Below are positions 51,818-54,606 of a stretch of DNA of 64,000 nt, one piece after another. This DNA comes from Felis catus (Eukaryota), in NCBI RefSeq assembly GCF_018350175.1, contig NC_058368.1:43712001-43776000 (forward strand). Direction: 5' to 3'. Each line of letters opens with the position of its first letter. The first letter of the stretch is position 1. The translations under genes and the position numbers were made by a program. The notes under the pieces were generated by a model, which saw only the letters and a program-made list of their open reading frames with translations, was not told where the DNA came from and searched no databases.

Positions 51818-52475
51818 CTCCATTGGCTGGTGTCTCTCATGTATATAAATGCAAAAGTTCTCAACAAAATATTAGCAAACTGAATCCAACAATATATAGT
51901 TAAAAAATCATATACCGCAATAAATTGAGATTTATTCCCGGGATGCAAGAATGGTTTAATATTCTCATAACAACCATAGTGATAATCACATCAAAAAGAA
52001 AAAGGACAAAACCACATGATCATTTCAGCAGATATAGCAAACACTTTTGACAAAGAACAACATCCATTCATGATAGAAACCTGGGATATTACTCAGCCAT
52101 TGAAAAGAGTGAAAACTTGCCACTTGCAGCAACATGGATAGAGGTAGAAAGTATAATGCTTATTGAAGTAAGTCAGTCAGAGAAAGACAGATGCCATGTG
52201 ATCTCACTCATATGTGGATTTTGAGGAACAAAAACAGTAAACGAAAAGAAAAGAGAGACAAACCAAGAAACAGACTGAACTACAGAGAACAAACTAATGG
52301 CTTCCAGAGGGGAGGAGGCTGGGACACCGGGGTTGATGGGACATGGGGATTGAAGAGTACTCTTATCCCGATGAAAAATAAAATGAAAACAACAAAAAAT
52401 AAAAATAAAATATAAAATAAAATAATAAAATAAAGTAAAATTAAATTAAATTAAAATTAAATTAAATTAAATAAA
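46910..52475 (+). mobile_element. Nested carnivore L1 pieces: 5' UTR/ORF1 (46910-48400), truncated L1 3' parts (48405-49775 and 50058-50935), ORF2 middle (50965-52085) and 3' end with tail (52085-52475)
   Basis: Remnants [21 protein letters not shown] and NLWDAAKVVLRGKFI; three separate L1 3' UTRs; (TAAA)n tail at ~49705-49775 and (TAAAA)n-like tail at ~52390-52475; internal boundaries approximate. Confidence 0.85.
50504..50730 (-). mobile_element. CanSINE inserted in an L1 3' UTR
   Basis: Full body; imperfect TSD accataaga(g/t)act. Confidence 0.94.
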
Positions 52476-52749
52476 AAACACATAGCACTGGAAATCCTAC
52501 CAAGAGTGATTAGGCCAAGACAATAAATAAAAGTCATCCATCAGAAAGGAAGAATAAAATTCCCTCTGTTCACAGATGACATGAATTAATATACAGAAAG
52601 CCACAAAGAGTCCACAAAAGAAATTATTTGAACTAATAAACCTATTCAGTAGGGTCAAAGGATACAAAATCACAATACAGAAATGATGTGAAGCTTATAT
52701 GGTAATAATGAATTATGCAACAAAATAAATTAAGAAAACAAGCCCATTT

Positions 52750-53849
52750 CTTCTTCCTCCAGACCAAGGGATGGAGCCCATGCAGGCCTTTTTAGCTCAC
52801 ACAATCCCAGCCAGACTGTAAGCATAGAGGCCAGCCTGTGTATAGATGAGTTGAAGCTCTACATGACTGAGAACTTCATCTCCACAATCCCTGCCATCTA
52901 GGGGGATACAATGATGAGCATCAAAATTATCTGATACCACTTCACTGGAATCCTAGCTGGCTCCTTTTTTATAAAAAATTCACAGATTTGGCCACAGCCA
53001 AGAAGCATTTGCATGAAATTAATGGGAAGCCCCTTCCAGGACCTACACCTTTACTTAGCTTACAGCTGTACCAGGCTGGCACATCTGGGTTCATAGAATC
53101 ATGGAGCTGGCAGTGCCCTTAATGGTTCCCTTCATTTTATACAGAATAAAAAGCTGTGGCTTTTTTTTTCCAAGGCAAAACATTTTTAACTGAACTATGC
53201 CACTTATTGGAAACAACCAGAAAACATCCTTGAGTATTTCTTCTTTGTGAGGGACCTGACCCAGATGTGGATGATGGCATATTGTATGAATTCTTTGTCA
53301 AAGACTACCCCTCCTTTTGGGGAGTCAGGGCAGTTTTGGACCAAAGAGATATGTCTAAAGGCTATGATTTTGTCACAGTTGCAGATGTACTGAAACAGAA
53401 GTGAGCCCTGACTGAGTGCCAGGGAGCAGTCAGCCTGGCATCTAAACCAGTGTGGCTGAGGAGTCTGGCAATCCCCACATGAGCCAAGTGAAGTCAGTGA
53501 GGTAGAATCAGAGTTAATACTTAACAGCTACAACCCCCATTACCAGCAGTAGCAGAACTACTACACCCACTGGTGCATGACCAGAACAGAGGCAGCTACA
53601 GCTACAACTGTCCCCAGTTTGGTTACACTCAGAGCACTATGTAGACATATGAAGAAGCTGGGGATGACACATTGGAGGACCCCATGCCACAGCTGGATGT
53701 GACTGAAACCAACAAGGAGCTCATGGACCAGAGCGAGGACCTGTAGGATGCACTGATGGACCATAACTAGCAGCCCCTGGACAGTGTCTTCAGACAGGAC
53801 ACAGGACAAGCCAAAATGGACTATGTGAGGGAGATAAGAGACTCTTTTT

Positions 53850-53890
<41 letters not shown>

Positions 53891-54077
53891 ATATTGGAAA
53901 ACTTTAACTTTTGGGAAATAATTTGTAAGAGTTTAGTAATTGACTAGTCTGAGATTATGACTATTCCTGAAACACTGCTGCCTTCATTTGACAGTGAGAC
54001 ATGTGAGTTTGAAAACCAAAGGACCAATTCATAATGTTTGAACAAAGTTCCAAAAAAAAGAGAAAAAAAAAGAAGAA
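52750..54077 (+). pseudogene. TRNAU1AP: Processed pseudogene of tRNA selenocysteine 1-associated protein 1 (SECp43, two RRMs)
   Basis: Manual translation from 52824 gives [67 protein letters not shown] (restoring one frameshift), [41 protein letters not shown], matching the recalled TRNAU1AP protein; intronless, many stops and frameshifts; A-rich tail at ~54052-54077; 18-bp TSD aagaaaacaa(g/t)ccca(t/c)tt at 52732-52749 and 54078-54095. Confidence 0.95.
53849..53890. repeat. (AAC)n microsatellite in the retrocopy 3' UTR
   Basis: Seen directly. Confidence 0.95.
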
Positions 54078-54123
54078 AAGAAAACAATCCCACTTACAAT
54101 ATCATAAAAATGAATAAAATACT

Positions 54124-54338
54124 GGGGCGCTTGGGTGGCTTAGTTGGTTAAGCGACCAACTTCAGCTCATGATCTCATGGTTTGTGAGTTTGAGCCTCGT
54201 GTCAGGAGCTCAGAGCCCAGAGCCTGCTTCAGATTCTGTGTCTCCCTCTCTCTCTGCCCCACCCTGCTTTCATTCTCTTTCTGTCTGTCTCTCTCTCTGA
54301 CTCTCTCTTTCTCAAAATAAACATTATATTTTTTAAAA
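54124..54338 (+). mobile_element. CanSINE
   Basis: ggggcgcttgggtggcttagttggttaagcg...(CT)n...aataaacatt; TSD gaataaaatact. Confidence 0.93.
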
Positions 54339-54556
54339 ATAGAATAAAATACTTAATGATAAACTTAACCAAGGAGGCAAAAGGCATGTACACTGAAAAC
54401 TACAAAACACTGATAGAAATAATTTTTAAAAGATACAGATAAATGGAAAAGTATCTTGTGTTTATAGCTTGGAACACTCACTGTTGTTAAAATGTCCATA
54501 CTACCCAAAACAATGTACAGATTCAATGCAATCTCTATCATGATTTCAATGACACT

Positions 54557-54559
<3 letters not shown>

Positions 54560-54606
<47 letters not shown>
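54560..54606. repeat. (CA)n microsatellite
   Basis: Seen directly. Confidence 0.97.

Follow-up and report, generated by a model that had tools for sequence, protein, structure and literature searches.

A decayed TRNAU1AP retrocopy in the cat genome very probably preserves a copy of a conserved poison exon

Processed pseudogenes are said to serve as records of splice variants, a view reportedly set out by Shemesh et al. in 2006, and the poison exons of SR and hnRNP splicing factors are reportedly conserved or even ultraconserved (Leclair et al. in 2020). The closest described case for the locus presented here is human TRNAU1AP itself. The passages of PMC13408128 (Nat Commun 2026) drawn on here place a poison exon, self-regulated and cross-regulated with PRPF39, in the intron that separates exons 3 and 4 of the human gene. 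Knockout of PRPF39 lowered poison exon inclusion 3.2-fold and raised TRNAU1AP mRNA 2.5-fold, knockout of TRNAU1AP led to exclusion of the poison exon from a TRNAU1AP minigene, and overexpression of intronless TRNAU1AP and PRPF39 made the endogenous mRNAs fall; together, these effects are described as negative feedback by NMD in human cell lines (PMC13408128). The main-text passages of that paper mention neither conservation nor pseudogenes. Passages from two other papers couple an included alternative exon in human TRNAU1AP to mRNA loss (PMC5737218, NAR 2017) and report that HNRNPA1 overexpression lowers inclusion of a TRNAU1AP exon (PMC5932609, Genome Res 2018). These passages name no exon, and the exon in question is likely the one considered below. 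TRNAU1AP is also reported to drive the poison exon of PRPF39, in text passages that give no binding motif for TRNAU1AP (PMC11389820).

We analyzed a 64,000-nucleotide stretch of the Felis catus genome (C1:43712001-43776000, hereafter the window) and searched it against its own 2.43-Gb genome. Window positions 52750-54077 are an old processed pseudogene of TRNAU1AP lying inside an interspersed repeat (Table 1). Very probably, the source of this retrocopy was a fully spliced TRNAU1AP mRNA that contained a poison exon from intron 3 and underwent L1-type retroposition; what is left of that exon, in decayed form, is the 124 nt at 53051-53174. While the poison exon is already known in human, the new elements are a dated genomic fossil of its use and its strong conservation. 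The human exon was described in a living gene in cell lines (PMC13408128, in the passages used), whereas the present material is a DNA fossil together with a conserved cassette in the cat genome. A literature search for retrocopies together with poison exons matched only an hnRNP review. Like the splice-variant pseudogenes that Shemesh et al. reportedly described, the cat retrocopy preserves the exon composition of its source mRNA; it differs from them in that the isoform preserved would be an NMD-targeted, autoregulatory one.

Table 1. Features of the TRNAU1AP retrocopy and its target site, in window coordinates.
Feature	Position	Strand	Basis
5' target-site duplication (TSD), 18 bp, host interspersed-repeat sequence	52732..52749	+	16/18 vs 54078-54095
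Retrocopy 5'UTR and exons 1-2 of TRNAU1AP	52750..52948	+	Matches to L016, upstream of parent exon 3
Retrocopy exon 3 (RRM1, ...GKPLPGPTP)	52949..53050	+	84% vs parent L002 1015-1118; PDB 2div match
Poison-exon copy (probable), 124 nt (parent 149 nt), in-frame stop TAA 53120-53122	53051..53174	+	Genome search and full-length alignment
Retrocopy exon 4 (AKHF-stop-LNYATY...)	53175..53227	+	93% vs parent L002 1735-1787
Retrocopy exons 5-8, many stops and frameshifts	53228..53677	+	Matches to C17 exons
Retrocopy exon 9 and ~226 nt of 3'UTR, (AAC)n microsatellite inside	53678..54051	+	L008 1501-1817
Decayed poly(A) tail	54052..54077	+	A-rich run from the end of parent 3'UTR homology
3' TSD, 18 bp	54078..54095	+	Repeats 52732-52749

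The retrocopy displays the features of an L1-mediated processed pseudogene: intron loss, an A-tract with a TSD, and a disabled reading frame. Genome search and local BLAST found nine parent exons, in order on contig C17, that are contiguous in the window without introns. The two upstream exons were recovered by local BLAST against the parent locus upstream of exon 3 (L016), where window 52782-52854 matches 2086-2158 at 67% and window 52839-52948 matches 2655-2765 at 76%, placing the boundary between exons 1 and 2 at about 52839-52854. Downstream, exons 5-8 match C17:21437868-8002, 21439032-146 and 21443678-840 at 81% each, and a short exon among them matches L009 2066-2114. The 3'UTR match extends, by eye, to about L008 1864, ending at about window 54051. 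Stops occur in all three forward frames, along with frame changes, and the retrocopy is therefore dead. To confirm the TSD, we turned to copies of the host repeat that are uninterrupted at the insertion site (L014 and L015). In both, the two flanks of the retrocopy are contiguous and overlap by exactly 18 nt, which proves the target-site duplication.

The host of the retrocopy is an older interspersed repeat spanning window 52450-52749 and 54078-54600, with flanks that recur at many genomic places, and we take it to be an L1 ORF2-like region. Upstream of this repeat fragment, window 52400-52475 is an AT-rich short tandem repeat of aaat and aaatt units. A SINE at 54126-54320, beginning ggggcgcttgggtggct and presumably tRNA-derived and of the carnivore type, is inserted in the host repeat just past the 3' TSD. 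The host repeat resumes after it with about 15 nt of overlap on L015, suggesting that the SINE has its own TSD. Within the retrocopy, the (AAC)n microsatellite lies at 53850-53891, where the parent has only ...tttttaacaaaagt... (L008 ~1693-1706), so the repeat expanded after retroposition. The mRNA 3' end captured by the retrocopy falls about 226 nt past the stop codon, directly before ag/gtaggg in the parent (54040-54052, against L008 1850-1870). No AATAAA or ATTAAA is visible in the roughly 40 nt upstream of this end, which may reflect polyadenylation at a non-canonical site or splicing within the 3'UTR.

We then considered the 124-nt segment itself. An initial annotation of the window, made from the sequence alone, had noted that TRNAU1AP homology stops cleanly at 53050 and restarts at 53175 with no coding sequence lost, and translation and alignment bear this out. 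Among the three forward frames, frame 3 reads ...FTDLATAKKHLHEINGKPLPGPTP and then LLSLQLYQAGTSGFIESWSWQCP-stop, giving the in-frame stop that the annotation had described, and frame 1 picks up with AKHF-stop-LNYATYWKQPEN.... Upstream of the segment, the translation aligns with the solved RRM of PDB 2div ('tRNA selenocysteine associated protein') as far as ...GKPLPGATP (E 1.3e-07), and alignment with the parent locus counts zero coding bases lost on either side. No TSD or A-tail surrounds the 124 nt, again as annotated; those that are present flank the retrocopy as a whole.

A genome search with window 52990-53240 returned, besides the window itself, three co-linear pieces on C17. The exon before the segment matches C17:21434074-137 (86%) and the exon after it C17:21434752-805 (93%); since two parent exons lie upstream, these are exons 3 and 4 of nine. 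The segment matches a single other place in the 2.43-Gb genome, C17:21434520-21434642, with an E value of 1.5e-23 and 80% identity, and a second search with the whole retrocopy as query placed it again in the parent intron (E 8.2e-23). This match is not due to chance. In the parent locus (L002, C17:21433020-21436142), exon 3 occupies 1016-1115 and ends on a complete codon at ...ggagccacacct followed by gtaagg (acacct/gtaagg), and exon 4 begins at 1735 after tttctag (tttctag/gcaaaacg). The GATP/AKRF boundary, named in the initial annotation as an exon junction, is thus one, with the 619 nt of intron 3 (1116-1734) between its two halves. It is within this intron, as had been predicted, that the segment finds its match, a 149-nt cassette at L002 1501-1649 that starts 385 nt past exon 3 and ends 85 nt before exon 4. 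Upstream of the cassette, the parent reads ...ctcttcccacag and ...ctgctcttcccacag (cccacag), and downstream it continues with gtaatttatt. With AG before it and GT after it, the cassette is a separate exon that has a 3' and a 5' splice site to itself.

Aligned over its full length, the segment agrees with the cassette in 107 columns, differs from it in 17 and is gapped in 25. The gaps are an 11-nt and a 14-nt deletion in the retrocopy, which leave it 25 nt shorter than the parent; here the ancestral length is taken from the parent and human cassettes and the retrocopy version is regarded as shortened. At the level of sequence, the retrocopy is an exact splice product, joining exon 3, cassette and exon 4 at base-exact junctions and containing none of the 385-nt and 85-nt flanking intron. 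As the retrocopy is a reverse-transcribed mRNA with splice-exact inclusion, the cassette was truly spliced into mRNA. The 24 sequencing runs listed for the parent cassette include 21 that hold the stretch or part of it, and none is recorded as RNA.

Read in the frame of exon 3, the parent cassette encodes LLSLQLHQAGTPGLIEPWSWQCP-stop, adding about 23 codons before a stop at cassette codon 24. The stop stands at the same codon in both copies, as TAA in the retrocopy and TAG in the parent. An mRNA is directed to NMD when a premature stop precedes its last exon junction by more than about 50 nt. The cassette is not a multiple of 3 in length and is followed by exons 4-9, and in combination with its early stop this would make the inclusion mRNA an NMD substrate. 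The parent cassette therefore has what is expected of a poison exon, namely its own AG and GT, a premature stop well upstream of the last junction, and splice-exact inclusion as recorded in the retrocopy.

The cat cassette corresponds to the human poison exon in intron, position and sequence. Supplementary Data 3 of PMC13408128 gives a human intron 3 of 613 nt with a 148-nt poison exon that starts after the first 380 nt and is separated from exon 4 by 85 nt, against 619, 149, 385 and 85 nt in the cat. When the sequences from that supplement were compared by eye, with no aligner, the cassette was identical in 146/149 columns, with one 1-nt indel and two substitutions. Identity, also by eye, was 39/40 in the 40 nt upstream, 75/85 in the 85 nt downstream, and 92/96 in exon 3. 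The poison-exon qPCR primer TRNAU_poison_F4 matches L002 1564-1580 at 16/17 positions by eye, and the exon-4 primer matches L002 1755-1774 at 19/20, likewise by eye (PMC13408128). Exon numbering also agrees with that of the human study, with two upstream exons and with the exon-3 and exon-4 primers and the annotation falling into place (PMC13408128). On these sequence grounds, the cat cassette and the human TRNAU1AP poison exon are orthologous. At both sites where the human and cat cassettes differ by substitution, the retrocopy has the human base, so these changes arose in the cat-lineage parent gene after retroposition. The 1-nt indel shifts the first in-frame stop, which is at codon 15 in human (by eye) and codon 24 in the cat; the poison exon has stops in several frames. 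With the published human poison exon as its counterpart (PMC13408128, as far as its passages go), the annotation's proposal that the source mRNA was an alternatively spliced, NMD-type isoform gains support from the AG/GT-bounded cassette and its in-frame stop. Its more general suggestion of self-regulation through an NMD exon likewise holds for the human orthologue, where inclusion is regulated by TRNAU1AP itself (PMC13408128).

The divergence of the retrocopy offers a measure of constraint on the parent exon. Between retrocopy and parent, substitutions number 17/124 in the cassette (13.7%) and 91/568 across exons 3-7 (16.0%, exon 4 counted by eye). Had the parent cassette drifted neutrally, its divergence would be expected to reach about twice that of the coding exons. 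The observed values, together with the near-identity to human, indicate on sequence evidence that constraint on the parent cassette has equaled that on coding sequence. Neutral drift, our first reading of the 80% identity, was rejected because exons 3-7 are equally diverged and the human exon is nearly identical. After correction for multiple hits, 16% corresponds to about 0.18 substitutions per site, almost all of them on the retrocopy. Mammalian neutral rates are around 2-3e-9 per site per year. At these rates, the retrocopy would be some 60-90 Myr old, an estimate that has a wide error and is inflated by CpG decay.

The genome supplies an internal control in the form of a second TRNAU1AP retrocopy at C17:173886430-173887170, on the minus strand (L007 ~1421-2241). 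In this copy, exon 3 is joined directly to exon 4 at the canonical junction. It differs from the parent at 102/583 sites across exons 3-7, against the 91/568 of the window retrocopy. These counts point to two retrocopies of similar age, one made from a canonical mRNA and the other from a cassette-containing mRNA. Only the best candidates were scored, and the genome therefore holds at least two TRNAU1AP retrocopies. Homology of the second retrocopy starts near the start of exon 3, which points to either 5' truncation or an interrupting repeat; the initial ~160 nt of the stretch examined match repeats elsewhere.

Could the extra 124 nt have another source? They abut exon 4 in the retrocopy, and splicing of the source mRNA might have shifted to an alternative 3' splice site upstream of that exon, a possibility allowed for in the initial annotation, or left the last part of intron 3 in place. 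The end of the segment, a T-run followed by ccaag, does resemble a polypyrimidine tract with its AG. The parent tells otherwise: there, 85 nt separate the end of the match from exon 4 and gtaattt comes directly after the match, so that ccaag is the end of the cassette, and the retrocopy lacks the 5' splice site and the true 85 nt of intron in front of exon 4. The T-run itself aligns to cassette sequence across the 14-nt deletion and is a remnant of that deletion and of substitutions. Rescuing this reading by a later rearrangement of the parent intron is argued against by the identical 85-nt spacing in human (PMC13408128, supplement). With 85 nt of intron separating the extra sequence from exon 4 in the parent, we reject the alternative splice-site and intron-retention reading as almost certainly wrong. 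It is only slightly less improbable that the retrocopy came from a canonical mRNA and gained the 124 nt later at the DNA level, through gene conversion, filler DNA from the parent locus or an unrelated insertion. Nothing supports such a gain directly, beyond the segment being 25 nt shorter than the parent cassette. Both ends of the segment coincide to the base with the exon-exon junction and with the cassette splice sites, no TSD or A-tail encloses it, and the parent is on a different contig (C17 rather than C1). Its divergence of 17/124 is also like the 91/568 of the neighboring exons, indicating that segment and exons are equally old.

A subtler alternative accepts the origin by retroposition of a cassette-containing mRNA but holds that the captured exon was splicing noise, such as a weakly exonized repeat, with no role as a feedback switch, leaving the fossil silent on ancient regulation. 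A single retroposition event can indeed capture a rare transcript, and the 3' half of the cassette, including the ccaag/gt donor (L002 1580-1660), may resemble the MIR core. A MIR-like element also occurs in intron 3 of the parent, ahead of the poison exon (L002 1140-1420). Compared with this element rather than with a MIR consensus, the cassette scored 29, in the wrong register; 500 shuffles gave a mean of 21 and a maximum of 39, and 14/500 reached the observed score, so the similarity is not significant. Against noise stands the by-eye identity of the cassette between human and cat (146/149), which is at least that of the adjacent coding exon (92/96) and exceeds that of the adjoining intron (75/85), as does the retention of splice sites, spacing and premature stop in both species (PMC13408128, supplement). 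The exon is carried by one of the two old retrocopies found, out of at least two in the genome, and the human exon has been shown by experiment to be regulatory (PMC13408128). We consider splicing noise unlikely, though a more serious contender than either of the other two.

We therefore favor the retroposition of a poison-exon mRNA. In this model, a fully spliced and polyadenylated TRNAU1AP mRNA containing the intron-3 cassette was reverse-transcribed and inserted with an 18-bp TSD. Inclusion of the cassette introduces a premature stop upstream of at least five exon junctions, rendering the mRNA a predicted NMD substrate. As TRNAU1AP and PRPF39 promote inclusion in human cells (PMC13408128, in the passages used), the outcome would be negative feedback on TRNAU1AP levels. 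Taken by itself, the retrocopy documents a single past occurrence of the isoform, in a cell of the germ line or early embryo, and is not evidence of its regulation. We infer that the isoform was already autoregulatory when the retrocopy formed, ~60-90 Myr ago, and the same TRNAU1AP feedback may operate in the cat today.

The cassette has much in common with the poison exons of SR and hnRNP factors: a premature-stop cassette in the gene of a splicing regulator that binds RNA, inclusion promoted by the gene's own product, and conservation at or above the coding level. It is unlike them in that TRNAU1AP does not belong to the SR proteins and has a loop coupled to PRPF39, and the conservation seen here is that of two species compared by eye. 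Finding the exon in one of the two old retrocopies identified, of at least two present, would suggest that the NMD isoform made up a substantial part of germ-line TRNAU1AP mRNA. Evidence for and against a broader picture seems to us evenly balanced. In that picture, the TRNAU1AP poison exon would be an ancient, near-ultraconserved element, constrained at least as strongly as the adjacent RRM exon; poison-exon mRNA would have been present in the germ line of an early ancestor ~60-90 Myr ago, with the NMD isoform a substantial share of germ-line TRNAU1AP mRNA; and the TRNAU1AP-PRPF39 circuit would be older than the split between primates and carnivores.

The locus is a modest but solid addition that reveals no new mechanism. 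It illustrates cleanly how a retrocopy can record an isoform destined for NMD; transcripts of this class are difficult to observe in steady-state RNA. To a TRNAU1AP-PRPF39 circuit so far described in human cell lines (PMC13408128, in the passages used), it adds two independent lines of evidence. One is that the exon, its splice sites and their spacing have hardly changed between human and the cat, a distantly related placental mammal; the other is that a fossil mRNA copy proves the ancient splicing-in of the exon. A human splice form published in 2026 was, on this evidence, very probably already being made in the ancestors of the cat tens of millions of years ago.
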